From Prevotellaceae bacterium (GTDB lineage: Bacteria; Bacteroidota; Bacteroidia; Bacteroidales; Paludibacteraceae), in NCBI GenBank assembly GCA_031271465.1, contig JAISVR010000030.1, forward strand, positions 7,455 through 71,454: a stretch of DNA of 64,000 nt, read 5' to 3'. A program made the translations under genes and the position numbers. Positions 14,152 through 45,201 of the stretch are shown one piece after another. How positions within the stretch are numbered: position 1 is the first letter of the stretch; every line of letters begins with the position of its first letter. A model generated the notes under the pieces. That model had not been told where the DNA came from. It saw only the letters and a program-made list of their open reading frames with translations, and ran no database searches.

Positions 14152-14452
14152 ATTACATAAAGTTTTTAATTTGCCTACTCTTAGGGTTTTCGGCTTCGCC
14201 CATAGTTTTATCGGGGCAAAGATAAAATGATTTTTTAATATTCGTTTTTATTTTTTCGTTTTTTTCGCTGTTTTGTATGAAATAAATTAAATACGAACAC
14301 GGAAAGTGATTGATACTCTGCATTTCAAGTGGCAATAAAATAGTTATCAACAGTTTTATTTTTTTGTAGAAAATGCTTTTTTTGTGGCTTTTTTGCTGTG
14401 TGTTTTCCATATTTTTAATATCTTTGTCGGGTATTTTTCAATTTTCATCTAA

Positions 14453-28800: not shown

Positions 28801-31800
28801 GGTCGATTCCTTGAAAGACGCGATGTTGAATTCTGCTGAAAGATCTTGGGAAGATTATAACCTAACCTTCAACTACCAGGGTGTAAATATGTACTCGATG
28901 ATTAATAATGCTACATTCAGTACCAATGCCAACGAAAAGAATGTTACGGTTAGCGGTCTGGACTATCCGACTTCCGCAGCACCCGTACGAAGAAGCTGGA
29001 CGAAGCAAAATATTGGATTTAATATAAATACACCTCTGTTTTACAGCATTGGGTTGAATAGCCCTGCACCGGAGCAAAATCCTATGACCAATATTGTAGA
29101 GTGGTCCCTCACCATATCCAATAACAGCGTTTGGGCAAGTACCGATGGCGTTTTGCCTAATACCTGGCTTGCTTTTGAGTGCCCTACGGGTATAAAACCT
29201 TATAAACTTATAGCTCCGGGCGGTGCGGCAATAGCCGATATCAGTACTGCCGGTTTCCTCGAATACGACCAAGACGGTATTACATACTATTGGGTAAAAG
29301 TAGGCAATGTAAACGCCTCTACTCCGCAAACCTATCGTTTGCAGTGTACTTACACGGCTTGTGCCGGACAACCGGGCTTAACCATAAAATGTGGCGCAAG
29401 CAAATCCGATTATCCGCAAGACCCCTATATGAGTTTTGCACAGCAACCGTATAATTCGCCTCAAATGCCGATACGCGGCGTGGTTAGCACAGCAGTAAAA
29501 TTTAATCCGCCTGTTATCGCTTTCTCGGGCGACCTTGCCTACATTCCTCACAATATGCCGCAAGGAACCATCAACTATTGTGAAGCGGTTGACTTTGTGG
29601 GCAATGCGTATAACGGTACCGCCGCCGAGGTGTATAATGTAAAATACCGCATTGAGCTGCCCGACGGAATGAACTTCAACGCAGCGGTAACGCCTAAGGT
29701 AACTTACAACGGCGTTACTACCAATGCTTCCGCCGCTTATCAAGCAGGTCGCGAGGTATTTATCGAACTCGGCGCAGGCATTAAACTCAATGCCTACGAC
29801 GGTATAGACGGCGGCAGCGACGAAGCCCGAGTTACCTTCTCGCTTAAAACCTCTTGCGGATTTAGCAACCGAAGTATTATTTACGCCAATGTAACCGGCG
29901 AGAGCGGTTGCGGCGCTGTGGGCGAGAATGTGTTGCTTAGCAGCCAGCCCGTTATGATTGAAGGCGTGGCAGATGTGCCCGTTTACCAGATTACGCAGTT
30001 ACAGGTAAATCAAAGCGCGTACAGCTACTCGGCAACAAACAGCCGCAACCTGATAGTACAGGGACAATATACCCTGGCAGCTATCAGCGGAGCCACGGCA
30101 AGCAACATGGCAATGATAGACATTCCTGCCAATATGACTTTGGTAAACTCGACTATGACCAGCAGCAAAGGTACTACAAGCAGCTTTACGCAAAACGGTA
30201 CCTTGCTGGAAGCGCCGTTCAACAACTTTATCGCCGCCGGCGATGTGAACAACGGTGCCTTTGGCGATACCTATACCTATACTATCGAGTTGCGTCCCGA
30301 CAATCCCGCCCAGCTTTCGTGCGACGAAATAGCAGTGCGCGCCTATTCGGGTGTAACTACCGAAGTATGGTGTTCGGCAACAAGCAGCATGTGTACCCTT
30401 GTGAACCCTGCCGATGTTGACCAGACGGTAAGCACCACGATAGACCAGCTTGCCCTGGAGTTTGCCAATATCACTGCCACCGGTAGCTACGGCGGCTCCA
30501 ACACGGAGCATGTGGTTATCTCGGGCGAATTGCATAACACAGGCACCGTAGACGCCGGAAAAATGAACATCGATGTGTATTATTTCGATGGCGTACAGTA
30601 TGTACCCGTTGCCGATGCCAACCTGCGCAATATTCAAAGCAATATCATTTTGGCGGGCGGTACCACATCGTTCACTATGGAGGGTAACATCGTTTATCCC
30701 GAAAGCGTTTGCCAGCTCAAACTGGTGTTGAGCCGCGACAATGCCGCCAACGCTTCGGGCAATGCTTACCTCTGCTACGACTTTGAGGTAGAAGTACCAA
30801 CCCCTGCATACTCGGTTCAAAATCCGCTTATCGAAAACATTTGTCCGATGAGCGTAAACACGCCAATCGGCGAAGGCTCCCTGCCCCGTTATACCTACGA
30901 ATGGAGTCCTTCCGATTACCTGAACAATGCTGCCATAGCCAATCCGCTGTTTAGCTACGACTATGAAAACAACCCCAAACCGAATGGCGATGTGCTTGTC
31001 TACAACCTTACGGTTACCCGTCCGGGCTGTACGCCTGTGAGCAATCAGGTAACGGTACATGTAAAAGGCTTACCCTCGGTACAAGTAAGCGACCGTGTTG
31101 TTTGTCCGAACGCAAGCGTGAATATTCCGCTTAGCGACCCGACAAACACTACGCCCGGCACCCCAACAACTTATACCTGGAGCGTAGAAACCGATATGGG
31201 TACGGGCTTGCCTGTCGGTGGAACGGGCAATACCATATTTGCGGCAAGCGTTGCAAACAACACAACCGATACCATTACAACGGTTTATTTGGTAACCCCC
31301 ATGAAAGACGGTTGTACCGGAGTAACACAACGATTTACGGTAAAAATTGCGCCTAAGCCTACGCTTGCTGTCAAGGCGCTGACCCCTATCTGTCTGGGTG
31401 CAAGCATCGATTTGGCTACTGCAATCACAGCCTCTCCGGGTTTAACCGTGGCGTATTTCGACGACAACTACAACGAATTGCCTTCGAGCACGGTTATCCC
31501 AACCGCTACCGGTACCCAAACCTATTATGCACAGGCAACAGCCACGGCAGCGCCCTCGTGCACAGGCGATTTCTATAAGATCATAGTCAGAGTACAGGCG
31601 GCAACCACCATTAATGTACAACCTGTTGGCGCGGCAATCTGTTTGGGCAGCAGCTATACATTACATGTAACAGCCGGCGGCGAAGGCGTCCTGTCTTATG
31701 TTTGGAAACGCGGCGCCACCGTAGTAGGCGGCAACACCTCCAGCTATACCATTAGCAGCGCTACCGCAGCCGATTTCGGCGACTATACGGTAGAAGTAAC

Positions 31801-34800
31801 CGGAGCTTGCGGTACAGCAGTAATCAGCAGCAAAGCAACAATCAGCCAAAAAGCCGAAACAGCTATCAGCACCCAGCCCCTTGGCGGCGCCATCTGTGCC
31901 GGCAACGGCTTGCCGATGAGCGTAGTAGCCACCGGTGAATTGCCATTAACTTATCAGTGGAAGAAAAACGGCTTGAATATTACAGGCGCCATGTCTGCCT
32001 CTTATACCGCTTTCGAAGCCGGCACCTACAGCGTAGATGTAACGGGAACTTGCGGCGTAGCCCTGCCAAGCAGCAATGCCGTTGTAACGCTGAAAGCCGC
32101 TACCCAAATCAGCATGCAGCCGCAAGGCGGCGCAATATGCGCGGGAGCTAACCTGCCGTTGAGCGTTAGCGCTACCGGCGAAGGCACATTGACTTACGAA
32201 TGGTTATTCAACGGTATAGCCGCTCCGGGTGTCAACAACCTGTCAACCTACTCGGCAACTGCTGCAGGCGCCTACAGCGTGCGTGTAACAGGCGAGTGCG
32301 GTACACCCGTGTTGAGCGATATAGCAGTTGTAAGCCTTAAAGCTACTACTCAAATCATTGACCAACCCGTTGGCGGCGCCCTTTGTACCGGCAGCAACCT
32401 CCGCCTAAGCGTTGAAGCTACCGGCGAAGGAATCCTTTCCTATCAATGGAAACACGACGGCAACCCGATAACAGGCGCTAGCAATGCCAACTACAACATC
32501 AGCAACGCCCAACTTGCCGACGCAGGCAACTATACGGTTGATGTAAGCGATGCTTGTGGTATAACCGTAAGCAGCTCGGTAGCAGTAGTTACCATTAAAG
32601 CGGCAACCGCTATCAGCACCCAACCCGTTGGCGGTGCGATATGTTCCGGCGACGGCTTACCGATAAGCGTAGTAGCTACGGGCGAAGCTCCATTGACCTA
32701 TCAATGGAAGAAAAACGGCTTGAATATCACGGGCGCCATGTCTGCCACCTACACCGCTTTCGAAGCCGGTACCTACAGCGTAGATGTAACAGGCGCTTGC
32801 GGCACAGCCGTACCGAGCGACAATGCTGTGGTAACGCTGAATGCGGAAACAAAAATCAATACCCAGCCACAAGGCGGTGCCATCTGCGCCGGCGATAACC
32901 TGACATTGAATGTTGACGCCGGTGGTCAAGGTACCTTAACTTACGAATGGCGTTTGAACGGCGCGGCAGCTCCGGGCGTAAACAATACGGCAAGCTATAC
33001 CGCCACCGCAGCAGGCAGCTACACGGTAGTAGTAACCGGCGCTTGCGGCGCATCAGTAACCAGTGCTCCGGCGGTGGTTACGCTTAAGGCGGCAACCGTT
33101 ATTAATATCCAGCCTGTTGGCGGCGCGATATGTGCCGGCAGCGGTTTACCGATGAGCGTAGTAGCCACCGGCGAAGGAACATTAAATTACCAATGGAAAT
33201 TAGACGGAGCCAATGTTGGCGGCAACAGCGCAAGCTATACCGCTTTGGCAGCAGGCAGCTACACCGTAGAAGTAACGGGCGTTTGCGGCGCAGCCGTGCC
33301 GAGCAATGCAGCAGTAGTTACGCTTAAAGCGGCAACAGCCATTACTACCCAGCCGGCAGCAAGCTCAAGCATTTGTTTGGGCGAAGGCGCAGCGCTAAGC
33401 GTAGTAGCTACGGGCGAAGCTCCATTGACCTATCAGTGGAAGAAAAACGGCTTGAATATCACAGGCGCCATGTCTGCCACTTATACCGCTTTCGAAGCCG
33501 GCACTTACAGCGTAGATGTAACAGGCGCTTGCGGCACAGCCGTACCGAGCGACAATGCTGTGGTAACGCTGAAAGCGGAAACAAAAATCAGCATGCAGCC
33601 ACAGGGCGGAGCAATCTGCGCGGGCACTAACCTGCCGATGAGCGTTAGCGCTACCGGCGAAGGCACATTGACCTACGAATGGCTGTTCAACGGCATAGCC
33701 GCTCCGGGTATCAACAACCTGCCTACTTACACGGCAAGCGTTGCGGGCAACTACAGCGTGCGTGTAACAGGCGAATGCGGCAGTCCCGTGTTGAGCGAAA
33801 CGGCAGTGCTTACAATTAAAGCAGCTACTCAAATTATTGAGCAGCCTGTTGGCGCAGCCCTTTGCCCGGGCAGCAACCTTCGCTTAAGCGTTGAAGCTAC
33901 CGGCGAAGGAATCCTGTCCTATCAATGGAAACACGACGGTAACCCGATAACAGGCGCCGCCAATGCCAACTACAGCATCAACAACGCCCAATTTGCCGAT
34001 GCCGGCAACTATACGGTTGATGTAAGCGATGCTTGCGGCACAACAGTAAGCAGTACCGTAGCAGCAGTTACGGTCGACGAACTTGAACTTACACTGAGCA
34101 CGACCCGGGCAGCTATATGTCTTGGCGGTTCCTACGATTTGAGTTCGGCAGTGGGTAGCACTACCGGCGGTACCCGCTTAAGCTATATCGTTAACGGTGT
34201 GGAAACAAACAGTCCGTTTGTTCAACCAGCCGAAGCCGGCACTTATGCCTACGATGTGGTGTTGCACTCTGCTCACTGTGCAAGTCTGCCTCAAACCTTC
34301 ACGCTCATCGTTGAAGACCTTCCCAGCGCTTTGCTCCTGGGTGGCGATGTATGCGTAGGTGGAAATGTACAGTTCAATGCGCATACAACACCTGCCAACG
34401 GCAGCGGCGCGTGGTACAGTACCAATTCTTCCGTCGCCACGGTTAATATCGCTACCGGCGAAGTAAGCGGAGTATCCGCAGGCGTGTTTGAACTTGTCTA
34501 CCGTCATACAAGCGATGCCGGCTGTATGTCCGAAACCAAAAGTTCTACCTTCAATGTATATCCGTTGCCTACCGTTAGCGTTAAAGATATGACGGTTTGT
34601 TCGGGTAGCGTTGTTCATATGGCAGACTTGGTATCGAATATTCACAACGGCGATAAATACGAGATTTACGATGCAGCCGTCGGCGGCAACCTGCTTGGCG
34701 CAAGCATCACGGTAAGCACTACCACTACTTACTATGTAGAAGGTATTATGACGGGCGTAAACTGCTTCAGTGCAGCACGCGTGCCTGTTACGGTTACGGT

Positions 34801-37618
34801 AGTCGATATGCCGGTCTTTACACTGGACGCAAGCGAAGTAGGTGTTTGTAACGGTACAAACGCCGGACACATCGATTTGGCGAGCTTAATCACAGCCGGA
34901 AGCGTAAACATCTCTAACTACACCGTAGAAGTATACGGAGAAGACGGCAAGCTTGTTACAGGCACCGTTGTTACGCCAAGCAACAACACCGAGATTTACA
35001 ACATTCGTATCGTATCCAACGATGTGAGCAGTTGTACAAGTGACTTCCAAAGCGTTCGGGTAAATCGTGGTTCCGTACAGTATGTAAGCTTGAACGACAG
35101 CGAAGGCGCTTACGAATTCTGTGCCGGCGAAATCGTAACCCTTAGTCCAAGCATTACGCCTGTAAACAGCATCAATGTACTTTGGACAAGCAGCAACCCT
35201 GCCGTGGCATCGGTTGATAATACCGGTAAGGTAACAGCCATTTCGAGCGGACAAGCTATTATCAGCTACAGCCATACCGAAAGCGAAGGTTGCCACAGCG
35301 AAGGTTCGCGCGCCATTATTGTCAACTCCTTGCCGCAACTGACTAATGTTAGCCACTTTGCCGCTTGCGAGGGCGAAACAGTAATGTTCAGTGAATTGGC
35401 AAGCAGCAATGCGGGCAACAAGCTGAACTTCTACCTCAACGGCAACGCCACGGCAGAAACTGCCGACCGTGTAGTGATGGGCACAAGCAACCTTGTTTAC
35501 ACTATCGAAGCGGAAGATATGCATACCGGTTGCGTGAGTGCAGCTCACACCGTTACCGTAACGGCAAATGCCAAACCAACATTCACCTTGCCGGCTACCG
35601 CCTCGATTTGCAAGGGTGAGAACCTCGATTTGGCAAGCCTTGCAACAGGCGTTAGCGCTATCGACCACAACCTGATCGTAGAAGATGTAGCGGGCAATAC
35701 ATTACAGGGAAGCATTGTTACACCGGTGGTTTCAACAAGCTATCGCGTGCGTGCTATCGATAATACAACGGGCTGCATAAGCCTTCAACAGTTGATAACT
35801 GTTACGGTGAAAGAAAAACCTGTGTTGGCAGTAGAAGACCTGACGGCTTGTGCCGGTACAACGGTCGATTTGAACACTGCCGTAGCAGCAGGTGCAAGCG
35901 CACTGAAATTCTACCGCGATGCTCAAGCTATGACTTTGGTTAGCAATCCGTCAGCCGTTGTTGCTGTCGCCGGAACTACAACCTACTATGTGCAAGGCGA
36001 AGAAAACGGTTGTTTGAGTGAAATCCACCCGATAGCCGTACTCGGCGAGGCAATGCCTGTGTTTGAGATTACCGAAGGTAAATTTACCGTTTGCGAAGGC
36101 GAACAGATGGTAGAATATCTGGCTCCGGCAAACTTCTCCAACTATACCTGGACAGTTGTGGGCGGCACGATTGCCAACCAAACGGGCAACAAAGTGTTTG
36201 TCGATTGGGCTGCGGCAGGTTACGGCAGTATCGCTGTTAGCTACGAAACTGCTTCGGGCTGTGGTGTCGGATTACCGCCGGTAAGCCACGCGGTGCTTAT
36301 TCAGGCAAGCCCTGATGCTTCGTTTGCTATCCACGACAATACAGGCGCTACCGTAGCGGCGGTGTGTGCAGGCAGCGAGTTAATGCTCTCGCCGCTTACC
36401 ACCGGCGGTACATGGACTGTAACGCCAAGTGCCCTGGCAAGCGTCAGCGGTAATACACTGACGGCGTTGAGCACCATCACTTCCGTGCAAACCATTGATG
36501 TAAGTTACACGCTGACAAACAGCAACGGTTGTTCTTCAACGCTTACACAGCAGCTTAGCATCAATCCGCTACCTGTTAGCGCACTTGCAAACCTTACAAC
36601 CGATGTTGCTACCGTTTGCCCGGGCGGCTCTGTTGAACTCACGGCTACTTATACAGGCGTTGCTCCTTGGAGTATCGTTTATACCGACGGTACGCTTACC
36701 GGCACACTCACCGATGCGCTTAGCTCGGTAACAATTCCGGTAAACGCAACAAGTATCTACTCGGTACTGAGCATTACCGACGGTAACGGCTGTGCCAACA
36801 CTGCGATAAGCGGCGCAAACACGCAGGCTATGGTAACGCTCGAAGCTCCGGTAGTTATCACCGAGCAACCTCAAAGTGTGGCTATGTGTAAGCAAGACGA
36901 CGAAAGTGTAACACTGTCCGTGTCGGCAGTAAATGCTGTCGCTTATCAGTGGTACAACGCCGAAGGCAAGATAACGGGCGAAACGGCAGAAACGCTGGAC
37001 TTGACTCCGGCGACAGCCAACAGCGCATACTACTATGTAGAAGTTATCGGCAAGTGCGAAACCTTGACTTCCAAGCGGGTAAGCATACAACTTCAATTGC
37101 CGGTTATTGAGCAGAAACGCAACCACACGCTGTGGGTAAACAATAACCCGGACAACAACGGCGGTTACAGCTTTACTCACTATACTTGGTTGAAAGACGG
37201 TGTGCAGTTGCAACAGGGAAGCCATGACAATAACATGGGCGTTCATTACATCGACGGCAGCGATTTGGTTGTAGATGCGATGTATCAAGTGATGCTCACT
37301 ACGACCGATGGACGAAAATTCATGAGCTGTCCGTACAGCTACATTCCGCAGAACTCAGGTGCAAGCCTAAGAGCGTATCCGAATCCGCTTGTTAGGAGCG
37401 CAGCTAAACAAGTATCTGTAGATGTAGAAATTGACGACACTACCGTGTTGAACGATGCTACGATTCTGATTTACAGCTCCGACGGTAAATATATCGGTAA
37501 AGTTCGCTGCGAAGGACGCCGCATTACTCCGGTAGAGATGCCTTCCGTATCGGGAGTATACATCCTCAAATTCGTTTCTTCGGAAATTGAAAAGGAAATT
37601 AAAATTATTGTAGAATAA
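25877..37618 (+). CDS. giant (3913 aa) T9SS-sorted cell-surface adhesin-like protein
   Basis: A single uninterrupted 11.7-kb ORF with an N-terminal signal peptide (LLLLASIFMTLAGQNAMAQ). About 1600 aa have no motif I recognise. Then come PKD/Ig-like Cys-containing modules, ten Y-x-W Ig-like repeats and Big_2-like segments. The C-terminus is a Por_Secre_tail-type CTD (LRAYPNPL...GVYILKF...IKIIVE). Confidence 0.9.
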   Translation: MNKNQPKQKPRNRFRWLLLLASIFMTLAGQNAMAQNDLSETVVPEAVVRMGDNLSFTVDVASSAGLTNAQLEVAAPAGFEFVAGQPGLIAGSLSGDRRTARFTVNVPQGNKRPVAFQVKALCESVEKTKMTYTLYAADGTTVLVAAKSGNEIANFINPILLTTYPAPVDVTLGVAATRIITMEQTAALSHANNIQINAVCTDKTGIAVTKLEVSSTGTGGWIDITATGLDASKADRYVYTLTRANTFTPLSYAGSQLREGSKIYIRETLVLSKCTAGTINYAVAFGDGTTFCAPLPASAGNAVLNVADQAFNPVMSVAVTKNPTSPTDWGKHTYTVSNSSATATLNDIYTTWNTTARRIYEKAFFSDASGEPVLLAGDTVFVTTTAASNTGTTTFGTGTATDLTLRDYYRARGFIATAGDSVYNDLPAGKTIYITQLWNLNFSSLAANCPMQINGGFAHVFEFYYYNQCGTRLMRPNIYGSGSTNSYVDGYEGLTLSSLEVQPSMLNVGESAKVYFMTRLGHGFPAANVAAGTSSHFIKITLPAGLDFDPAAAFPVRILSASKGALTNGNVDMASGRIQVIDNQHIIVQNIANTNALNHCVEVAVKPNGTVSTVQPQIAVEQALDWGNTGTQYRFGCSTGNINFVVKTPCSEIEAIDFSIDRTSMGWTNISKTAHISKADGANTKVIYANDNVSITSKMKINYASPLTITAADKLMTVTSYTGTQYLIKNPDRVSAGTLIYYDVSAGNVHTIPVAATDITYRNSAGIQFMEMDMAPLLLNEGITALRGNDSIRLELFMRTQQNLPVLNREGLRDVQFEVYRESGADTYQCYSLLDQVTFVQSPMNSLRARNADSSYDWRENAVINQNNFWWGGSKNTNGGNLLTAGEYRPNLDSISRLYMEINSLVKINTISTTLSGRVMGNELNRTLTGVTLQLGKAPEDYSAQEIADETGLTQADFNKLGYHIWYKDGRTFLRVDSLKDAMLNSAERSWEDYNLTFNYQGVNMYSMINNATFSTNANEKNVTVSGLDYPTSAAPVRRSWTKQNIGFNINTPLFYSIGLNSPAPEQNPMTNIVEWSLTISNNSVWASTDGVLPNTWLAFECPTGIKPYKLIAPGGAAIADISTAGFLEYDQDGITYYWVKVGNVNASTPQTYRLQCTYTACAGQPGLTIKCGASKSDYPQDPYMSFAQQPYNSPQMPIRGVVSTAVKFNPPVIAFSGDLAYIPHNMPQGTINYCEAVDFVGNAYNGTAAEVYNVKYRIELPDGMNFNAAVTPKVTYNGVTTNASAAYQAGREVFIELGAGIKLNAYDGIDGGSDEARVTFSLKTSCGFSNRSIIYANVTGESGCGAVGENVLLSSQPVMIEGVADVPVYQITQLQVNQSAYSYSATNSRNLIVQGQYTLAAISGATASNMAMIDIPANMTLVNSTMTSSKGTTSSFTQNGTLLEAPFNNFIAAGDVNNGAFGDTYTYTIELRPDNPAQLSCDEIAVRAYSGVTTEVWCSATSSMCTLVNPADVDQTVSTTIDQLALEFANITATGSYGGSNTEHVVISGELHNTGTVDAGKMNIDVYYFDGVQYVPVADANLRNIQSNIILAGGTTSFTMEGNIVYPESVCQLKLVLSRDNAANASGNAYLCYDFEVEVPTPAYSVQNPLIENICPMSVNTPIGEGSLPRYTYEWSPSDYLNNAAIANPLFSYDYENNPKPNGDVLVYNLTVTRPGCTPVSNQVTVHVKGLPSVQVSDRVVCPNASVNIPLSDPTNTTPGTPTTYTWSVETDMGTGLPVGGTGNTIFAASVANNTTDTITTVYLVTPMKDGCTGVTQRFTVKIAPKPTLAVKALTPICLGASIDLATAITASPGLTVAYFDDNYNELPSSTVIPTATGTQTYYAQATATAAPSCTGDFYKIIVRVQAATTINVQPVGAAICLGSSYTLHVTAGGEGVLSYVWKRGATVVGGNTSSYTISSATAADFGDYTVEVTGACGTAVISSKATISQKAETAISTQPLGGAICAGNGLPMSVVATGELPLTYQWKKNGLNITGAMSASYTAFEAGTYSVDVTGTCGVALPSSNAVVTLKAATQISMQPQGGAICAGANLPLSVSATGEGTLTYEWLFNGIAAPGVNNLSTYSATAAGAYSVRVTGECGTPVLSDIAVVSLKATTQIIDQPVGGALCTGSNLRLSVEATGEGILSYQWKHDGNPITGASNANYNISNAQLADAGNYTVDVSDACGITVSSSVAVVTIKAATAISTQPVGGAICSGDGLPISVVATGEAPLTYQWKKNGLNITGAMSATYTAFEAGTYSVDVTGACGTAVPSDNAVVTLNAETKINTQPQGGAICAGDNLTLNVDAGGQGTLTYEWRLNGAAAPGVNNTASYTATAAGSYTVVVTGACGASVTSAPAVVTLKAATVINIQPVGGAICAGSGLPMSVVATGEGTLNYQWKLDGANVGGNSASYTALAAGSYTVEVTGVCGAAVPSNAAVVTLKAATAITTQPAASSSICLGEGAALSVVATGEAPLTYQWKKNGLNITGAMSATYTAFEAGTYSVDVTGACGTAVPSDNAVVTLKAETKISMQPQGGAICAGTNLPMSVSATGEGTLTYEWLFNGIAAPGINNLPTYTASVAGNYSVRVTGECGSPVLSETAVLTIKAATQIIEQPVGAALCPGSNLRLSVEATGEGILSYQWKHDGNPITGAANANYSINNAQFADAGNYTVDVSDACGTTVSSTVAAVTVDELELTLSTTRAAICLGGSYDLSSAVGSTTGGTRLSYIVNGVETNSPFVQPAEAGTYAYDVVLHSAHCASLPQTFTLIVEDLPSALLLGGDVCVGGNVQFNAHTTPANGSGAWYSTNSSVATVNIATGEVSGVSAGVFELVYRHTSDAGCMSETKSSTFNVYPLPTVSVKDMTVCSGSVVHMADLVSNIHNGDKYEIYDAAVGGNLLGASITVSTTTTYYVEGIMTGVNCFSAARVPVTVTVVDMPVFTLDASEVGVCNGTNAGHIDLASLITAGSVNISNYTVEVYGEDGKLVTGTVVTPSNNTEIYNIRIVSNDVSSCTSDFQSVRVNRGSVQYVSLNDSEGAYEFCAGEIVTLSPSITPVNSINVLWTSSNPAVASVDNTGKVTAISSGQAIISYSHTESEGCHSEGSRAIIVNSLPQLTNVSHFAACEGETVMFSELASSNAGNKLNFYLNGNATAETADRVVMGTSNLVYTIEAEDMHTGCVSAAHTVTVTANAKPTFTLPATASICKGENLDLASLATGVSAIDHNLIVEDVAGNTLQGSIVTPVVSTSYRVRAIDNTTGCISLQQLITVTVKEKPVLAVEDLTACAGTTVDLNTAVAAGASALKFYRDAQAMTLVSNPSAVVAVAGTTTYYVQGEENGCLSEIHPIAVLGEAMPVFEITEGKFTVCEGEQMVEYLAPANFSNYTWTVVGGTIANQTGNKVFVDWAAAGYGSIAVSYETASGCGVGLPPVSHAVLIQASPDASFAIHDNTGATVAAVCAGSELMLSPLTTGGTWTVTPSALASVSGNTLTALSTITSVQTIDVSYTLTNSNGCSSTLTQQLSINPLPVSALANLTTDVATVCPGGSVELTATYTGVAPWSIVYTDGTLTGTLTDALSSVTIPVNATSIYSVLSITDGNGCANTAISGANTQAMVTLEAPVVITEQPQSVAMCKQDDESVTLSVSAVNAVAYQWYNAEGKITGETAETLDLTPATANSAYYYVEVIGKCETLTSKRVSIQLQLPVIEQKRNHTLWVNNNPDNNGGYSFTHYTWLKDGVQLQQGSHDNNMGVHYIDGSDLVVDAMYQVMLTTTDGRKFMSCPYSYIPQNSGASLRAYPNPLVRSAAKQVSVDVEIDDTTVLNDATILIYSSDGKYIGKVRCEGRRITPVEMPSVSGVYILKFVSSEIEKEIKIIVE
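31598..34077 (+). repeat. ten tandem ~81-83-aa Ig-like coding repeats arranged in triplet blocks
   Basis: Unit consensus is QP.GG.IC.G..L.LSV.ATGEG.LTY.W..NG...G....SYTA..AG.Y.V.VTG.CG..V.S..AVVTLKA. Blocks A-B-C (~31860-32595) and A''-B''-C'' (~33325-34070) are visibly about 90% identical at nucleotide level. A' and A'' sit 732 nt apart. Confidence 0.9.
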
Positions 37619-37732: not shown

Positions 37733-39343
37733 ATGAAACGACAAATAAAAACGATTATGCTGCTAATTGCGGGTTTAAGTATATTAAGCAGCGTTCAGGC
37801 ACAGGATACTTTGCAGTTTTCCTACGAGGAAATTGCCGTTGATACGGTAATTGTTGTCGAAGATTCTCTTGTTGCCGATGAACAGATCTTGGTTGAAGAG
37901 CTTGTAGTAACAGATTCGGCTGTAACAGCTACACCTGTACAAGAACCTCAATCACAGGAAGAAAAAGCACCCAAAACCTATTGCCCTCACGAAATAGGCG
38001 TTTGGCTTTCGGGCGGTGTGTCCGAGTTGCTCTATTCGAGCAGTTTCGGCAACGAATCGCTTGGTTGGGGCGGTGCTTTCGGCGTGGGTTACACATGGTT
38101 TTTTCACAAGAACTGGGGTGTCGGCTTGGGTGCAGAGCTGGCTCTGTATCAGGGACAAATCCGCATCGACGGTTTAACGGATACCTATCAAACGCAAGAC
38201 CAGGACGGTCATGATATTCATTATTCCGCCCGTTTTGATAACTACAAAGAATATCAATACCTGGGTAATGTAAATATCCCGTTGAACATTATGTTCCAAA
38301 CCAACATGCGCGGTAACAACAAGTTTTACACTTCGCTGGCGTTCAAATTGGGCGTTCCCATTTGGAGCCAATACAGCAGTAAAAGTGCGGAACTCACTAC
38401 CTGGGGCTATTATCCTCATGTAAACCAAACGCTTACGCAGCAGCAAGATTTGGGTTACGGCAACTTTAAGGGCATCAATACAAAGGGGACAATACCGTTC
38501 GACCTGTCGTATATGGGGCAGATAGAAATGGGTTTCAAATGGCATGTAGCTCCCGGAAGAGATTTGTACACAGGCGTGTATGCCGAGTATGCGTTCAACG
38601 ATGTGGTTAAAGGTGCTCCCGAAGACCGCTTCATTGCCTACAACAGCGAAAATCCCTCGGCTTTTCTCAGCAATGGTGTATTGACCTCCGAATACCGCCG
38701 ATATGGAACAAGCTCTGCTTTCACCGATAAGGTGGCGTTGCTGGGCGTGGGCATAAAATTGAAACTCGGTTTTTCTGTTGGTTGCAGCGAGTTGCTTGCC
38801 GCCGAGCGGGTAGCAAAAGAGCCTCAGCAAGAACCTCTGCCGGAACCTGTCAATCCAAATCTTGAGATAGCTCGTCAGTATGCCGAAGCGGCTCGCGCCG
38901 CAGCTGAGCAGGCTCGCATTGAAGCCGAGCGTGCCCGCCAAGAGCGCGATGCGTATTTACGCGATGCCGAAGCGCGCCGTGCAAATTTCGAGCGCAATGT
39001 AGTGCGTCCCAACAGGCATTTGGAGATGGACAACTACAACCTCGCTATCGTAACGCTGAATCCTGTTCAGAAAAGCGAATTGGATGTCTACATCGCACAG
39101 TTGCAGTCGGATGAAAATACGACCGTGCGTATTACCGGTCATACCTGCGACCTCGGCTCCGAGGAGTTGAATATGCGCATCGGTCAAGAGCGCGCCGACC
39201 TCGCCAAAGATTATATGGTAGAGAACGGCATCTCGCCCGGTCGGATAACAACTTTCTCAGAAGGCGAATCAAGCCCGATTTTCCCGAATAATAATGCCGT
39301 GAACAGGAAGAAAAACAGACGCTTGGAGATAGAGATTAGATAA
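37733..39343 (+). CDS. OmpA-family outer membrane protein (beta-barrel, coiled coil and OmpA C-terminal domain)
   Basis: Start set at MKRQIKTIMLLIAGLSILSSVQAQ (signal peptide). Beta-barrel-like middle region, A/R/E-rich helix (AARAAAEQARIEAERARQERD) and OmpA_C motifs (ITGHTCDLGSEELNMRIGQERA...NRRLEIEI). Confidence 0.88.
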   Translation: MKRQIKTIMLLIAGLSILSSVQAQDTLQFSYEEIAVDTVIVVEDSLVADEQILVEELVVTDSAVTATPVQEPQSQEEKAPKTYCPHEIGVWLSGGVSELLYSSSFGNESLGWGGAFGVGYTWFFHKNWGVGLGAELALYQGQIRIDGLTDTYQTQDQDGHDIHYSARFDNYKEYQYLGNVNIPLNIMFQTNMRGNNKFYTSLAFKLGVPIWSQYSSKSAELTTWGYYPHVNQTLTQQQDLGYGNFKGINTKGTIPFDLSYMGQIEMGFKWHVAPGRDLYTGVYAEYAFNDVVKGAPEDRFIAYNSENPSAFLSNGVLTSEYRRYGTSSAFTDKVALLGVGIKLKLGFSVGCSELLAAERVAKEPQQEPLPEPVNPNLEIARQYAEAARAAAEQARIEAERARQERDAYLRDAEARRANFERNVVRPNRHLEMDNYNLAIVTLNPVQKSELDVYIAQLQSDENTTVRITGHTCDLGSEELNMRIGQERADLAKDYMVENGISPGRITTFSEGESSPIFPNNNAVNRKKNRRLEIEIR

Positions 39344-39610: not shown

Positions 39611-40369
39611 TTATTTCTTTATTCCTTTTTGATTTTCTTTCAAGTAAAAATCAAGGGCGGAAGTCATGGACGAAAATTGTGGTTGAGGCACTTCCAAATC
39701 GAGGCGTAACCCGGCTTCGGAAACGGCTTGTGCGGTTTTCTGCCCAAAACAGGCAATGCGAATATCGCCTTGCTCGAAATCGGGGAAGTTTTTTAGCAAC
39801 GACGAAATGCCCGAAGGGCTGAAAAACACCAGCATGTCGTAATCAAACTCTTCTTCGGGAGTAAAATCGTTGCTTACCGTACGATACATCACACCTTTGG
39901 AGTAGTTGAATTTATGCTTGTCGAGCAGTACGATAATCTCGTCATTATGAACATCGGTACAGGCAAGCAGGAATTTTTCCGCGTTGTGTTTTTGCATCAC
40001 CGTCATCAACTCGGGCAATTTACCCGAATTGCTGTAAAATACCTTGCGCTTACGATATTGAATATATTTTTGCAGATACAATGCAACGCTTTCCGAAATA
40101 CAATAATAGTGCATATCTTCGGGCACTGTAACACGCATTTCCTGACATAAACGGAAAAAATTGTCGATACCGGTTCGGGCAGTAAAAATAATACCGGAAT
40201 GGTCTAGAATAGACACTTTTTGTTGACGAAAATCTTTCGCTAAAACAGGTTCTACCTTGATAAAAGGTCTGAAATCAATCTTGACTCCATACTTTTCTAT
40301 AATGTCGAAATAGGGAGATTTTTCACTCTCAGGTTTTGGTTGTGATACCAGAATTCTCTTAATTTTCAA
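39611..40369 (-). CDS. uroporphyrinogen-III synthase family (HemD-like) protein
   Basis: 252 aa. The N-terminus ILVSQPKPESEKSPYFDIIEKYGVKIDFRPFI is typical of the Bacteroidota HemD-like family, which pairs with DUF4271. Confidence 0.75.
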   Translation of the reverse strand: MKIKRILVSQPKPESEKSPYFDIIEKYGVKIDFRPFIKVEPVLAKDFRQQKVSILDHSGIIFTARTGIDNFFRLCQEMRVTVPEDMHYYCISESVALYLQKYIQYRKRKVFYSNSGKLPELMTVMQKHNAEKFLLACTDVHNDEIIVLLDKHKFNYSKGVMYRTVSNDFTPEEEFDYDMLVFFSPSGISSLLKNFPDFEQGDIRIACFGQKTAQAVSEAGLRLDLEVPQPQFSSMTSALDFYLKENQKGIKK

Positions 40370-40393
40370 AACAATAACCCCTTAATTTTTTGG

Positions 40394-41197
40394 TTAAGCA
40401 ATCACTTTTAGCACGATCAAAATAGGTAAAATTTCGAGGGCACAAAGATACAACATTATATAGAAAAAAGAAGAATATTTATGCAGAAATATTTGCAAAG
40501 TCTTGTAAATCATTAAAAAAAACGCAACAATACAAAGGAAAAGAGCCAGTATAAGAAAACTTTGATGCAAGGATGGAGGCATATAAATTAATCCCACCGT
40601 GAGCGGAAAAAGCAGTAAGCCCAAGCCGAAAAGAATGGAGAAATAACTTTTGATAAACAACCGGCTTAGGTTTTGTTCGAAAAAAATAAATCCGATTACT
40701 TTAAAAATAAGAAGTTTAATGCCAATAAAAGCAAGTGTAGCAATGGCGAATAAGCCGAGATAATATAATTCGCAAGTATTTCTTGCGTAAAAAAACAAAC
40801 TGTATAGAAACAAACTGACCGACCCTACAAATAACAGCACAAAACTTGTACTCATTTGAGCCATGTTAGCTGTGGATTCGATAAAAATGCTCGACCGTTC
40901 TTTGAGGTAGAAAAAATCCTTTACGGTTTCGGTTAAAAGTTTCCGCCAATGGGTGAAAATGTAGCCGGTAAGGAAAAACAGCAACAATAGTAAAACGGGG
41001 ATAAGCGGACTTGCTCCAAGCGGTGCGTGCAGCGGTGTGCCTGTAAAGCCCGATGTTGCTTTGGCTACTTGTGCAAGCGAATCGGCAACCACATCGGCGC
41101 GTTGCAGTGCGTGGAGCGAATCGCGCAGACGAGCTATTGCGGCAAATTCGAGCGTGTCGGGCTGTAGAATGATGTTGTCGTTTACTATTGTCGGCAT
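40394..41197 (-). CDS. DUF4271-like polytopic membrane protein
   Basis: Start set at MPTIVNDNII (41197). At least six TM segments. Sits in the conserved position upstream of the HemD-like gene. Confidence 0.65.
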   Translation of the reverse strand: MPTIVNDNIILQPDTLEFAAIARLRDSLHALQRADVVADSLAQVAKATSGFTGTPLHAPLGASPLIPVLLLLLFFLTGYIFTHWRKLLTETVKDFFYLKERSSIFIESTANMAQMSTSFVLLFVGSVSLFLYSLFFYARNTCELYYLGLFAIATLAFIGIKLLIFKVIGFIFFEQNLSRLFIKSYFSILFGLGLLLFPLTVGLIYMPPSLHQSFLILALFLCIVAFFLMIYKTLQIFLHKYSSFFYIMLYLCALEILPILIVLKVIA

Positions 41198-41244
41198 AAT
41201 GGCTATAAAGACGAATGTGCAAAGGTAATTTTTCCGCCGAAAAT

Positions 41245-42342
41245 CTACAATTTTTCCTTCAAATACCGTCCTGTGTACGACGATTTGCATTTCACCAACT
41301 CTTCGGGACTTCCTGCAAATACAAGGTTTCCGCCTGCCGTTCCTCCTTCGGGACCGAGGTCAATAATGTGGTCGGCACATTTTATCACATCCAGGTTGTG
41401 TTCGATAATCACTACCGTATGTCCTTTCTCAATCAACGCATTGAAAGCGTGCATAAGGGTTTTAATGTCGTGAAAATGTAAGCCTGTGGTAGGTTCGTCG
41501 AACACGAAAATGGTCGGTTCCGATTTTTCGCCTGCGAGGAAAAACGCGAGTTTTACCCGCTGACTTTCGCCGCCCGAAAGCGTACTGCTGCTTTGTCCAA
41601 GCTTGACATATCCCAACCCGACATCTTGCAAGGGTTTCAATCGTTTTACGATTTTGCGGCAGGTAGAGTTATCTTTTTGTTCGGAGAAAAATTCAATTGC
41701 TTGATTAACGGTCATTTCTAAAACATCGTAAATGTTCTTTTCCTTAAAAAGCACATCGAGAATGTCGCTTTTGAAACGCTTACCGTGGCAGCTTTCACAT
41801 TCGAGCACGAGGTCTGCCATAAATTGCATTTCCACCGTTACCGTGCCCTCGCCCTGACATTCCTCGCACCTGCCGCCCTCTACATTAAACGAGAAATATG
41901 CAGGCGTAAAGCCCATTTGCTTGCTCAACTGCTGGTCGGCATAAAGTTTACGAATTTCGTCGTAGGCTTTCAAATAAGTTACAGGGTTCGAGCGCGAGGA
42001 TCGACCGATAGGGTTTTGGTCTACAAACTCGATGTCTTTTGCCAAGTGCATGCTGCCTTGCAGCGACCCGAAAGCTCCCGTTCGGTCTGCTACGCCGCCA
42101 TAGTATTTCTTCAGTGCAGCATAGAAAACATCGCGTACCAGCGACGATTTTCCCGAGCCGCTCACACCTGTTACTACTGTGATTATTCCTAATGGAAAGC
42201 GTACATCAATGCCTTTCAAATTGTTTTCGCTCGCGCCAAGCACTTCGATGTAGTTATTCCAGCGGCGGCGAGTAGCAGGCATTTCGATTTTTTCTTCGCC
42301 GCTAAGATAGGCGAGGGTATAAGAATGGAGAGTTGTGTTCAT
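41245..42342 (-). CDS. uvrA: excinuclease ABC subunit A, C-terminal half (ABC module II) as a separate ORF
   Basis: 365 aa. Begins MNTTLHSYTLAYLSGEEKIEMP, matching the E. coli UvrA linker [17 protein letters not shown]. Walker A GVSGSGKSS, zinc module GGRCEECQGEG/CESCHGKRF, signature [12 protein letters not shown] and Walker B FVFDEPTTGLH are all intact. Confidence 0.9.
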   Translation of the reverse strand: MNTTLHSYTLAYLSGEEKIEMPATRRRWNNYIEVLGASENNLKGIDVRFPLGIITVVTGVSGSGKSSLVRDVFYAALKKYYGGVADRTGAFGSLQGSMHLAKDIEFVDQNPIGRSSRSNPVTYLKAYDEIRKLYADQQLSKQMGFTPAYFSFNVEGGRCEECQGEGTVTVEMQFMADLVLECESCHGKRFKSDILDVLFKEKNIYDVLEMTVNQAIEFFSEQKDNSTCRKIVKRLKPLQDVGLGYVKLGQSSSTLSGGESQRVKLAFFLAGEKSEPTIFVFDEPTTGLHFHDIKTLMHAFNALIEKGHTVVIIEHNLDVIKCADHIIDLGPEGGTAGGNLVFAGSPEELVKCKSSYTGRYLKEKL

Positions 42343-42944
42343 TCAATTAAATCTTCGTTATTGTTTCGTTGCCGTTCGGTAAAAAATCCAATTCGGCGGC
42401 GTGGTTTGTTAGGCAATGGTTTGCGTACTTGCATTTCGGCAAGCGTACGATTTATTTGTTCGAATTGCAACCTTGTGTCTTCGTTAATATCGTTGTAATC
42501 GGCAAAAACTTCTTCTACATATTCTTGTAGTTGGACAACCTCCCGTTGTAACTGTGTAACATTGTCATTGCTAACAGGTAATGGGTTGAGTATCAGTTGG
42601 CGCATAGCGATAAAGGCACGAACTATCAAAATATTTGTTTCTATGGCAACATCGCTTCTAAGAACGCTCGAAAGCATCGTAACATCGTGTTCGGTAAAAG
42701 CTAATGGTAAAGCCATTTTAGGGCGTTTATTGCGCGATGTCATCACAAATTGTGATGACATAGTTTTCCATTCCTCCTGTGTTAATTGGAACATAAAATC
42801 GGTTGGAAACCGCTTTGCGTTATGCTTCACCGCTTGATTTAGCACTCGTGTTTCTACTTGATACAAGAAAGCCAAATCAAAGTCCAGCATTATTTTTTGT
42901 CCTCTGATTTCGTAAATTAAGTTTTTTATCGGTAGCAAATCCAT
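42339..42944 (-). CDS. ORF6N (KilA-N-related) DNA-binding domain protein inserted within uvrA
   Basis: Start set at MDLLPIKNLIYEIRGQKIMLDFDLAFLYQVETRVLNQAVKHNAKRFPTDFMFQLT, the ORF6N signature. The C-terminal part is helical. Its TGA overlaps the ATG of the uvrA C-half (ATGA at 42339-42342). Confidence 0.8.
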   Translation of the reverse strand: MDLLPIKNLIYEIRGQKIMLDFDLAFLYQVETRVLNQAVKHNAKRFPTDFMFQLTQEEWKTMSSQFVMTSRNKRPKMALPLAFTEHDVTMLSSVLRSDVAIETNILIVRAFIAMRQLILNPLPVSNDNVTQLQREVVQLQEYVEEVFADYNDINEDTRLQFEQINRTLAEMQVRKPLPNKPRRRIGFFTERQRNNNEDLIE

Positions 42945-42963
42945 TTTCAAAATTTTCACGACA

Positions 42964-42971
42964 CAAAAATA
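42964..42971 (-). promoter_or_regulatory. TAnnTTTG -7 motif (TATTTTTG) ahead of the ORF6N gene
   Basis: The minus strand reads gattgTATTTTTGtgtcgtgaaaattttgaaaATG. The motif lies in the 50-nt gap after the uvrA N-half stop. Confidence 0.4.
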
Positions 42972-42994
42972 CAATCATTATCCTTCGTTTTAAA

Positions 42995-44692
42995 TCACTT
43001 TTTCGGCACTTCTCCTGCATAAACCACCTCGCCGCCATGACGACCGGCTTCGGGACCGATGTCGATAATGTAGTCGGCGGCACGGATAATTTCCTCGTCA
43101 TGCTCTACCACCACTACGGTATTACCGAGGTCGCGAAGCTGTTTCAATACTTTAATTAGCAGGTCGGTGTCGCGCGAGTGGAGCCCAATGCTCGGTTCGT
43201 CGAGAATATAAAGCGAGCCTACCAGACTACTGCCAAGCGATGTTGCCAAATTGATGCGCTGACTTTCGCCGCCCGAAAGCGTGTTGCTCAACCGGTTGAG
43301 CGTGAGGTAACCCAGTCCCACATCGAGCAGGAATTGCAGGCGGCTGTTTATTTCCGTCATCAACCTTTTAGCGGTAGCGGCTTCGGAGGCTGTGAGATGG
43401 AGTTTTTCGAAAAAAAGCTTCAACTCTGTGAGAGGCATTTCTACCAGTTCCGAAATGTTTTTTCCGCCCACGCGTACATAATTTGCTTGCGGTCGCAAGC
43501 GCGAACCATGACACACGGGACAAATGGTTTTTCCGCGATAGCGTGCCAACATTACGCGGTACTGTATTTTGTACTGACCTTCTTCCAAGTGTTGAAAAAA
43601 AGCGTCCAAGCCATGAAAATACCGGTTGCCAGTCCACAGCAGGCGTTTCTGTTCGTCGGTGAGTTGATAGTAAGGTTTGTGAACAGGAAAATCGAATTTG
43701 TCTGCCGCACGAATCAGTGCGCGTTTCCATTCGCTCATCGTTTCGCCTTTCCAGCAGGCAATAGCATCTTCGTAAACCGACAGCGACTTGTTTGGAATTA
43801 CCAAATTTTCGTCGATGCCGATAACGCGCCCGAAACCTTCGCAGTTCGGACAGGCACCAAGCGGATTATTAAAACTGAAAAGCTGTTCCGACGGAACTTC
43901 AAATACGATACCGTCTGCCTCAAATGTGTTTGAAAAATGTTTTCGTATGGTTTTTTCTTCGCTGTAAATAAGCAAATAACAACTGTTCTTCCCCTCGAAA
44001 AATGCGGTTTCTACCGAATCGGTGGTGCGGCTGCGTGTAGCAGGGTCGGGTTGTACCGTAAGACGGTCGATAACCAGAAACACCTTGTCTGCCTTTACCT
44101 GCGTGGGATTATTGATGACATCGGCTATACGCAGAATTTCGCCTTTCAGCTCTACGCGACTAAAACCTTGTTGTTGCAACAACTGTAATTGCTGCGCCAA
44201 ATCGCGACCTTCGGGCACAACGACAGGTGCAAGTACTACAAAACGGGTGCCTTCGGGATAGCTTAAAATATAATTTACCACATCTTCGGGCGTGTGTTTT
44301 TTCACCACTTCGCCCGATATGGGCGAGTAGGTTTTGCCTATGCGGGCAAAAAGCAGTTTCACATATTCGTACACTTCTGTGCTTGTTCCCACTGTGGAGC
44401 GCGGATTGCGTGTGTTCACCTTTTGCTCAATGGCAATGGCAGGCGGAATACCTTTAATGTAATCGACTTCGGGTTTGCTCATGCGCCCCAAAAACTGTCG
44501 TGCATACGCCGAAAGGCTTTCTACATATCGACGCTGCCCTTCGGCATACAGCGTATCGAATGCAAGCGATGATTTGCCTGAGCCGGATAATCCCGTGATA
44601 ACGACCAGTTTATTGCGCGGAATTTCGACATCAATATTTTTCAGGTTGTGTACCCGTGCGCCTTTTATCAGTATGTTTCCCTGTTTAGCCAT
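42995..44692 (-). CDS. uvrA: excinuclease ABC subunit A, N-terminal half (ABC module I) as a separate ORF
   Basis: Start set at [20 protein letters not shown] (44692). Walker [10 protein letters not shown], zinc modules CPNCEGFG and CPVCHGSRL, signature LSGGESQR, Walker [13 protein letters not shown]. It ends ...[14 protein letters not shown]-stop, where intact UvrA proteins continue. Confidence 0.9.
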
Positions 44693-44706: not shown

Positions 44707-44714
44707 CAAAGGTA
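44707..44714 (-). promoter_or_regulatory. TAnnTTTG -7 motif (TACCTTTG) upstream of uvrA
   Basis: The minus strand reads cccTACCTTTGcaaaaaatttaaaaATG. Confidence 0.45.
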
Positions 44715-44937: not shown

Positions 44938-44968
44938 GACCTGTCAGGTTTTGAAAACCTGACAGGTC
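44938..44968. repeat. perfect 13-bp REP-like hairpin
   Basis: gacctgtcaggtt-ttgaa-aacctgacaggtc. A second hairpin (gataccgcttcaagcgcggtatgacgg type) follows at ~44985-45012. Confidence 0.7.
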
Positions 44969-45030: not shown

Positions 45031-45201
45031 ATGGAACGCTTCTGGAAAACCTTAAATGAAGATTTTATTGAAGAGGCATTATATGAAAATTTGGACGATT
45101 TGAAAAATGAACTGTTGGGCTTTTTAATCTATTATAACGAGCACAGACCACATTCGGCAATTAACGGACTAACTCCAAAACTAAAAGCTAAAAACATGTA
45201 A
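45031..45201 (+). pseudogene. remnant of a DDE (rve-type, IS3/IS481-like) transposase C-terminus
   Basis: The 56-codon ORF MERFWKTLNEDFIEEALYENLDDLKNELLGFLIYYNEHRPHSAINGLTPKLKAKNM matches the conserved end of the integrase core (ERF..TLK.E...YN..RPH.A..G.TP). No upstream catalytic region is present. Confidence 0.7.

Follow-up and report, generated by a model that had tools for sequence, protein, structure and literature searches.

The nucleotide-binding modules of ATP-binding cassette (ABC) proteins commonly work as separate chains, and many ABC systems contain two nucleotide-binding chains. UvrA of Escherichia coli is reported to have a protease-sensitive hinge, cleavage of which gives domains of roughly 70 and 35 kDa (Myles and Sancar 1991). 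Enzyme genes in pieces are also known from phages: in phage Aeh1, the free-standing homing endonuclease gene mobE splits nrdA, and an active enzyme is assembled from the pieces with no need of splicing (Crona et al. 2010, PMC3045599). Here we analyse a stretch of 64,000 nucleotides (the window) from a Prevotellaceae bacterium assigned to the Paludibacteraceae (GenBank assembly GCA_031271465.1, contig JAISVR010000030.1, positions 7,455 to 71,454), in which uvrA, a gene of nucleotide excision repair (NER), is present as two open reading frames (ORFs) separated by a small ORF6N gene. The interpretation that we favour, with a probability of about 60%, is a tolerated gene fission giving a working two-chain UvrA. 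The initial annotation of this DNA knew of no described precedent for such a locus, and no paper on a split uvrA came up in the literature searches aimed at one; likewise, we know of no UvrA encoded in two chains.

Sequence and ORF view place three abutting ORFs on the minus strand, in the order uvrA-N, a 50-nt spacer, the ORF6N gene and uvrA-C. The first of them, uvrA-N (42995-44692, minus strand), encodes 565 aa (63.4 kDa), counted from the MAKQGN start that is common to all orthologues in the protein alignment; it comprises UvrA ABC module I with the UvrB-interaction and DNA-binding insertion domains, and it ends with five non-homologous codons (EVPKK) past the last conserved strand, GGEVVYAG. 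The spacer between its stop and the ORF6N start (42945-42994, minus strand) is AT-rich (GC 24%) and shows no homology to the DNA that precedes the closest ORF6N homologue. The ORF6N (KilA-N-like) gene itself (42339-42944, minus strand) is a 606-nt ORF for a protein of 201 aa (23.8 kDa), whose start, MDLLPI, is backed by homologues with the same beginning. It overlaps the next ORF in a gaATGa junction (42339-42342, minus strand), where the last A of its final GAA codon and the TG of its TGA stop form the ATG of uvrA-C. The latter (41245-42342, minus strand) starts with MNTTLHSYTLAYLSGEEKIEMP and encodes 365 aa (40.5 kDa) with UvrA ABC module II and the zinc module. All these ORFs, coordinates, the spacer and the ATGA junction are exactly as they had been annotated initially. 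In our judgement the layout cannot be a chance pattern, because a Pfam-significant gene is flanked by the two complementary halves of a single 940-aa family, in order and on the same strand. Downstream, uvrA-C runs at its 3' end 46 nt into a DUF4271 membrane-protein gene, as measured from the predicted start of the latter (41245-41290, minus strand), and a HemD-like gene comes next; L002, the locus of the orthologue P0122, does not have the same gene order downstream.

The two halves together account for nearly the whole of UvrA. In the NCBIfam search, uvrA-N covers positions 3-580 of the 943 of PRK00349 (E=1.5e-195) and uvrA-C positions 588-941 (E=3.9e-144); on the UvrA structures, the N-half corresponds to residues 23-594 of 2r6f_A and 3-556 of 3pih_A, and the C-half to residues 604-954 and 565-914, respectively. 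Only 8-9 linker residues are unaccounted for on these structures and no folded domain is cut. The initial proposal that the break lies within the inter-module linker is thus borne out by profile coverage, alignment and structural mapping alike. Moreover, uvrA-N matches the Pfam families PF17760 (UvrA_inter, E=1.2e-20) and PF17755 (UvrA_DNA-bind, E=2.8e-12), and Walker A, the LSGGE signature, Walker B, the H-loop and CxxC pairs are all found in each half: GLSGSGKS (residue 34), LSGGE (472), LYILDEP (494) and EHD (530) in the N-half, GVSGSGKS (59), LSGGE (255), IFVFDEP (278) and EHN (314) in the C-half. Joined, the halves show no deviation at 394 near-invariant columns of 120 UvrA sequences (mean 1.07 per sequence, maximum 24), and with the full motif set this upholds the earlier description of both halves as intact. 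Their mean identity to outgroup UvrAs, 73.6%, is the highest in the clade, and there is therefore no rate acceleration. The genome around them, as seen in the window, is dense (86% coding, GC 43.7%) and is not a decaying one. Judged by these sequence features, an old pseudogene is excluded.

The insertion was delimited by comparison with intact orthologues, as the initial annotation had recommended, through the ortholog list, protein alignment and blastn, all of which back an insertion relative to them. A block of 688 nt (42325-43012, minus strand; both ends approximate) is without recognisable homology to orthologous uvrA: in blastn against L002 homology is lost at about 43013 and comes back at about 42309. 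The ends of the block are not fixable to the nucleotide: conservation within the gene is lowest in the linker, and the nearest orthologue is only 74-77% identical at the DNA level. The block consists of an 18-nt new tail including the stop, the 50-nt spacer, the 606-nt ORF6N ORF and 14 nt of the first C-half codons, and stands in for about 42 nt (14 codons; NYSDIAEKSKQPND in P0122). The first six codons of uvrA-C belong to it; in fact, where the linker of the sister clade reads ...GGEVVxEG-NYxDIAEKxKxPND-S[FY]TIKYL, the C-half in the window reads MNTTLH-SYTLAYL. It had been stated that only a few residues were replaced, and this has to be corrected: about 14 linker residues (NYxDIAEKxKxPND) have given way to 5+6 unrelated residues. 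The GC content at third codon positions is 0.366 in the ORF6N gene and 0.511 in each uvrA half and, with the 24% GC of the spacer, this fits inserted DNA. An apparent remnant of the old linker, 'AEK' in another reading frame immediately ahead of the stop of the N-half, was rejected since three A-rich codons are too few, and so was a microhomology between the ORF6N 5' end and the orthologue's KIDLP codons, which is in the wrong position to explain the junction.

Inteins, introns and excisable elements are known from conserved repair and replication genes, and it could be asked whether the block is a removable element of this kind, the loss of which from the DNA, the RNA or the protein would make uvrA continuous again. 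The locus offers little room for it: a stop codon and 50 nt of non-coding spacer separate the ORFs, no Hint/intein domain and no recombinase is found with Pfam and NCBIfam, and no group I or II intron or other Rfam family occurs at the locus, Rfam intron matches being absent from the window. Nor do the ends of the block resemble those of an element. No element-end-like direct or inverted repeats flank it, those repeats that are seen being short, imperfect and away from its ends; a 15/18 direct repeat at the two ends of the window's ORF6N gene was dismissed as chance, as it is not conserved in 135 homologues. Across the same 135 homologues there are no conserved end repeats, with a mean best match of 11.7/18 against 11.4 for the shuffle null, that is, at chance level. 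We regard a removable element as very improbable. An insertion sequence or transposon was likewise rejected, since the block has no transposase, no terminal inverted repeats and no target-site duplication.

The distribution of the split was surveyed in the 120 best UvrA matches including the window's own. The 119 closest orthologues (70-84% identity), several of which are labelled Paludibacter or Paludibacteraceae, are single genes of 925-982 aa, typically about 935 aa, and the only short protein among the 120 is the window's own. P0122 is 84% identical to uvrA-N and 86% identical to uvrA-C. A second record of the split comes from the Logan contig L001 of SRR14710911 (3233 bp), which is 100% identical to window positions 40047-43279, spans both junctions and also encodes the uvrA-C protein; the N-half as called by JGI (P0121) is on a 79-kb contig. 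Exact-sequence look-up returned no record for the 201-aa ORF6N protein or for P0121. A search for a stand-alone C-half in 1.84 billion representatives gave matches dominated by duplicated UvrA fusions of 1600-2300 aa. Many such public proteins (P0241-P0390) are fusions of UvrA duplicated in tandem, in which 6-9 stretches match; this is the opposite of fission.

These records also bear on the possibility of an assembly artefact, in which a repeat-like ORF6N copy would have been misjoined into uvrA. Several Bacteroidales genomes do contain more than one ORF6N gene, and such paralogues could mislead an assembler. Both junctions, however, recur in a second assembly that was produced by other software and agrees with the first over 3233 bp with 100% identity; the sequences on either side of the insert are the two parts of a single gene, with the order, the strand and the frame all as expected; and the 64-kb window contains no second ORF6N gene and no second copy of uvrA. 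We consider a chimera scarcely credible, and conclude from the sequence records that the split is real and confined to one lineage.

The intervening gene belongs to a widespread family. ORF6N (PF10543) is its sole Pfam domain at E<=0.01, and the match is strong: E=3.5e-31, 107.8 bits against a cutoff of 27.8, with residues 9-94 aligned to positions 2-86 of 86. In PADLOC the protein matches profiles of the candidate defence family PDC-S05 (PDLC04869, E=2.1e-48; PDLC04856, E=6.6e-48, positions 12-166 of 177; PDLC04849, E=5.5e-36), and among phage families it matches PHROG 4792, 'anti-repressor' (E=4.5e-33). No NCBIfam family matches it, and nuclease, recombinase and transposase domains are absent according to Pfam and NCBIfam. 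The protein has an N-terminal ORF6N domain followed by long helices and a basic tail; its AlphaFold2 model is poor (mean pLDDT 60.3) and shows an N-terminal alpha/beta part and then long helices. Foldseek of this model against the PDB gave nothing at E<=0.001, and phmmer of the protein against the PDB only chance matches. It has more than 8000 homologues, the closest of which, P0002, is 76% identical at the protein level, and homologues at 40-69% identity are found on 66 predicted viral contigs (L171-L236, IMG/VR), many of them near contig ends. To judge from these matches, the family is common to Bacteroidales chromosomes and phages or prophages. The ORF6N literature consulted names a gene with this domain among the neighbours of clsB in B. 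fragilis and assigns no function to it.

Genome scans covering one genome per species and the JGI metagenomes, two collections that do not include the source genome, yielded 158 chromosomal loci with ORF6N homologues, which with the 66 viral ones make 224 fetched loci. Context was surveyed for 167 loci, 132 of which have two identifiable neighbours. The ORF6N gene is co-directional with both neighbours in 88 of these 132; in 42 loci no more than 120 nt separates it from each of its two neighbours, and in 9 it overlaps the start of the downstream gene. The annotated neighbours are full-length housekeeping genes, none of them split. They include metG followed by an O-glycosylation flippase gene (wzx), purL, nadE, panE followed by lgt, lepA, mutS, rpiB followed by truB, an rsmF-like gene entered by an ATGA overlap, and a putative class II aminoacyl-tRNA synthetase gene (read from its C-terminal sequence) followed by cysS. 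Wedged examples, with 51-70% identity and gaps of 3-100 nt or ATGA overlaps, are L003, L014, L031, L039, L048, L059, L068, L118, L133 and others. Several genomes carry two or more ORF6N copies (two loci each in four metagenome-assembled genomes or isolates).

The ATGA junction, which had been reported as a feature of the uvrA locus, is indeed present but is not special to it. In the locus of the closest homologue (L092) a GAATGA end overlaps the ATG of an unrelated downstream ORF, and other ORF6N homologues likewise overlap the start of the next gene by ATGA. Nucleotide similarity between L092 and the window is limited to the ORF6N ORF and four upstream bases. An ATGA end is native to the ORF6N subfamily concerned. 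Co-directional tight packing and their own ATGA ends indicate that ORF6N genes habitually live within co-directional operons. This pattern suggests that the wedged ORF6N/PDC-S05 homologues are operon-embedded passenger genes, and as we interpret it the uvrA case is the same operon-embedding habit, at a domain instead of a gene boundary. The habit is not described in the ORF6N literature consulted.

A different role for the middle gene would be that of a third component: the ORF6N protein could have been recruited to work with the two UvrA chains, for instance to regulate NER by binding DNA, or to serve a UvrA-like ATPase, coupled to it, as its sensor in defence. The tight layout can be read as co-transcribed and translationally coupled, the protein falls in PDC-S05, one member of which is protective against T7 and T5, and UvrA-like ABC proteins occur in some defence systems, both halves having PADLOC mad3 matches. 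These mad3 matches, however, are generic ABC-ATPase similarity, and the uvrA concerned is an ordinary housekeeping orthologue, 84% identical to intact ones. Above all, the ORF6N homologues stand beside many unrelated housekeeping genes and never beside uvrA: this holds for all of the 224 fetched loci, chromosomal or viral, and tblastn found no uvrA in the 158 chromosomal ones (best ORF6N match 69-70% identical), the match in L064 being a generic ABC-ATPase. The cassette that was to be looked for in other genomes does recur beside or between other operon genes, but in none of the 224 loci inside uvrA. Since its neighbours are so many and so unrelated, the association with uvrA looks incidental; the idea that the ORF6N protein works together with NER finds no support in these loci, and we think a three-part unit improbable.

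Expression signals at the locus are modest. The initial annotation had pointed to a promoter-like motif in the spacer, and an octamer fitting the Bacteroidetes -7 promoter consensus TAnnTTTG, TATTTTTG, is present there at 42964-42971; a second match to the consensus, TACCTTTG, is found at 44707-44714 (minus strand), 15-22 nt upstream of the uvrA-N ATG, and may be the -7 box of a candidate uvrA promoter driving all three ORFs. The motif has little weight as evidence, given that TANNTTTG is found 82 times in the window against 69 expected. Scans for sigma-70 promoters and terminators gave nothing specific in the spacer, and its coding strand has no terminator-like hairpin. The ATGA overlap is likely to be a termination-reinitiation site, and a second in-frame ATG at residue 21 of uvrA-C (EEKIEMP) could serve as an alternative start. 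Further upstream, the 833-nt gap between uvrA-N and frr contains a 56-aa ORF (45031-45201, plus strand) that corresponds to the C-terminal end of an rve_3 integrase core only (Pfam E=1.2e-12). Adjoining this transposase relic, about 250 nt upstream of the uvrA-N start, is a near-perfect 27-nt palindrome (44940-44966), CCTGTCAGGTTTTGAAAACCTGACAGG, which is single-copy in the window and could be a terminator or an element end.

In the tolerated fission that we favour, a 688-nt block has taken the place of the ~14-codon linker between the ABC-ATPase modules of a housekeeping class I uvrA in one Paludibacteraceae-like lineage. It brings a stop five codons past the end of module I, an AT-rich leader and a complete PDC-S05-type ORF6N gene, whose ATGA stop provides module II with an in-frame start. 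One transcript that begins at the uvrA promoter would cover the three ORFs, perhaps supplemented by transcription from a promoter in the spacer, and uvrA-C would be translated by termination-reinitiation after ORF6N. The resulting 63-kDa and 40-kDa chains would associate via the normal module I/module II interface to make a working UvrA, while the ORF6N gene would be a passenger from a phage- and defence-associated small-gene family of co-directional housekeeping operons and not a new NER subunit. The strongest argument for function is the place of the insertion. The linker makes up 42 of the ~2800 nt (~1.5%) of the gene, the same strand contributes a factor of 1/2 and an in-frame ATG a factor of 1/3; as the linker site, the same strand and the in-frame ATG are all found together, the locus argues for a tolerated insertion. 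Such a combination would be unlikely for a random unselected hit and expected if only tolerated insertions survive. Aeh1 nrdA is a precedent for such an outcome, and the chains of 63.4 and 40.5 kDa may be set beside the E. coli UvrA domains of roughly 70 and 35 kDa.

The main competitor is a recent inactivation, by which uvrA would have been killed, or left with an only partly active N-half, too recently for secondary mutations to accumulate, NER being lost or carried out by a second paralogue. It draws on the rarity of the split, which among the 120 closest UvrA proteins concerns the window's own only and has nothing comparable among the 224 ORF6N loci; on the lack of any time-calibrated sign of selection after the split; and on the transposase relic 340 nt upstream (45031-45201), which shows that other disruptive events took place nearby. 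Against it, a random hit would rarely fall in the 1.5% of the gene that is the linker, share the strand of uvrA and also provide the downstream half with an ATG in frame; the 394 near-invariant columns have no changes and the rate is not accelerated; and the surrounding genome is not degenerate. We hold this explanation to be rather unlikely.

Several points nevertheless weigh against a functional two-chain enzyme. The split is known from a single lineage, through one JGI contig and one Logan contig that maybe come from the same sample, and with one lineage only purifying selection after the split is not measurable; the intactness of the halves would fit a young insertion equally well. Each half alone scores below the profile cutoffs (652 and 482 bits against 1147 for PRK00349, 631.5 and 473 against 729.8 for TIGR00630), and in place of the single ~940-aa polypeptide at equivalog score by which class I UvrA is recognised there are chains of 565 and 365 aa. 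The 14-residue linker motif that is conserved in the sister clade is lost, and the favoured interpretation assumes it to be dispensable. As TAnnTTTG is barely enriched in the window, neither of its two sites is strong evidence and the promoter in the spacer is weak. Finally, the finding that there is no second uvrA applies to the 64-kb window and not to the whole genome.

If the two chains work, the UvrA ATPase modules need no covalent link, which would be useful for NER mechanism and engineering, and nature would for the first time have provided evidence that the two modules can function in trans. Phage 'genes in pieces' would then have a counterpart on a bacterial chromosome, and one made by a non-nuclease gene. 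If instead the split were a fresh knockout, it would be an ordinary insertional pseudogene. A bolder and distinctly tentative proposal, which we would sooner doubt than accept, joins both sides of the analysis: the ORF6N/PDC-S05 genes of Bacteroidales would be promoter-poor, phage-derived passengers, possibly with a defence function, that colonise co-directional housekeeping operons where genes or domains meet and bring along their own signals for stop and restart (ATGA), and one of them would have made UvrA a working two-chain enzyme in the lineage of the window. Genes of this family wedged between the housekeeping genes of Bacteroidales may in any case interest the fields of phage defence and operon evolution.

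Elsewhere in the window, a 3913-aa ORF packed with Ig-like and PKD repeats (25877-37618, plus strand) is probably a giant surface adhesin, and the next gene is of the OmpA family (37733-39343, plus strand). An Rfam DUF805b RNA motif is located at 14172-14203 on the minus strand (38.3 bits, gathering score 35.6).

Compared with described systems, the intervening gene resembles PDC-S05 and PHROG 4792 in its strong profile matches, its form as a small stand-alone gene and its viral homologues, but the copy in the window is inside a housekeeping gene and not in a defence island or prophage. In E. coli, one PDC-S05 member with a RhuM domain lowered plating by a factor of about 1000 for both T7 and T5 (bioRxiv 10.1101/2024.09.26.614923). 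This experimentally assayed member is RhuM-bearing, distant and from another organism, and a defence role of the window's subfamily is only a candidate one. Class I UvrA (PDB 2r6f, 3pih) shares all domains and motifs with the split protein, in normal order and with 84-86% identity to Paludibacteraceae orthologues; the differences are the two polypeptides (565 and 365 aa), the replaced linker of about 14 residues and the unrelated gene in between. The fission and fusion of tandem ABC ATPases is alike in that two modules with composite ATP sites occur in one or two chains and the split falls at the module boundary, whereas here it is due to a visible, recent insertion and elsewhere it is inferred from ancient phylogeny.

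The comparison with homing endonuclease genes, already drawn in the initial annotation, holds for the outcome and fails for the mechanism. As in Aeh1 nrdA/mobE, a small inserted gene divides a conserved enzyme gene into two ORFs of the same strand, the halves are intact and new short tails are present at the junctions. Unlike in Aeh1, the split gene is a housekeeping NER gene of a bacterial chromosome and does not belong to a phage; the insert is of the ORF6N/KilA-N type without detectable nuclease; and the break is at a natural inter-module linker and not inside a catalytic domain. With no nuclease domain, a homing mechanism is not supported and the gene is not a member of the homing-endonuclease class; element-end repeats and conserved end repeats are missing as well. 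The insertion is absent in the 119 closest orthologues and present in one lineage, so that recurrent homing to this site is not seen. The split uvrA would be best described as a gene fission by an inserted selfish or defence-type gene.

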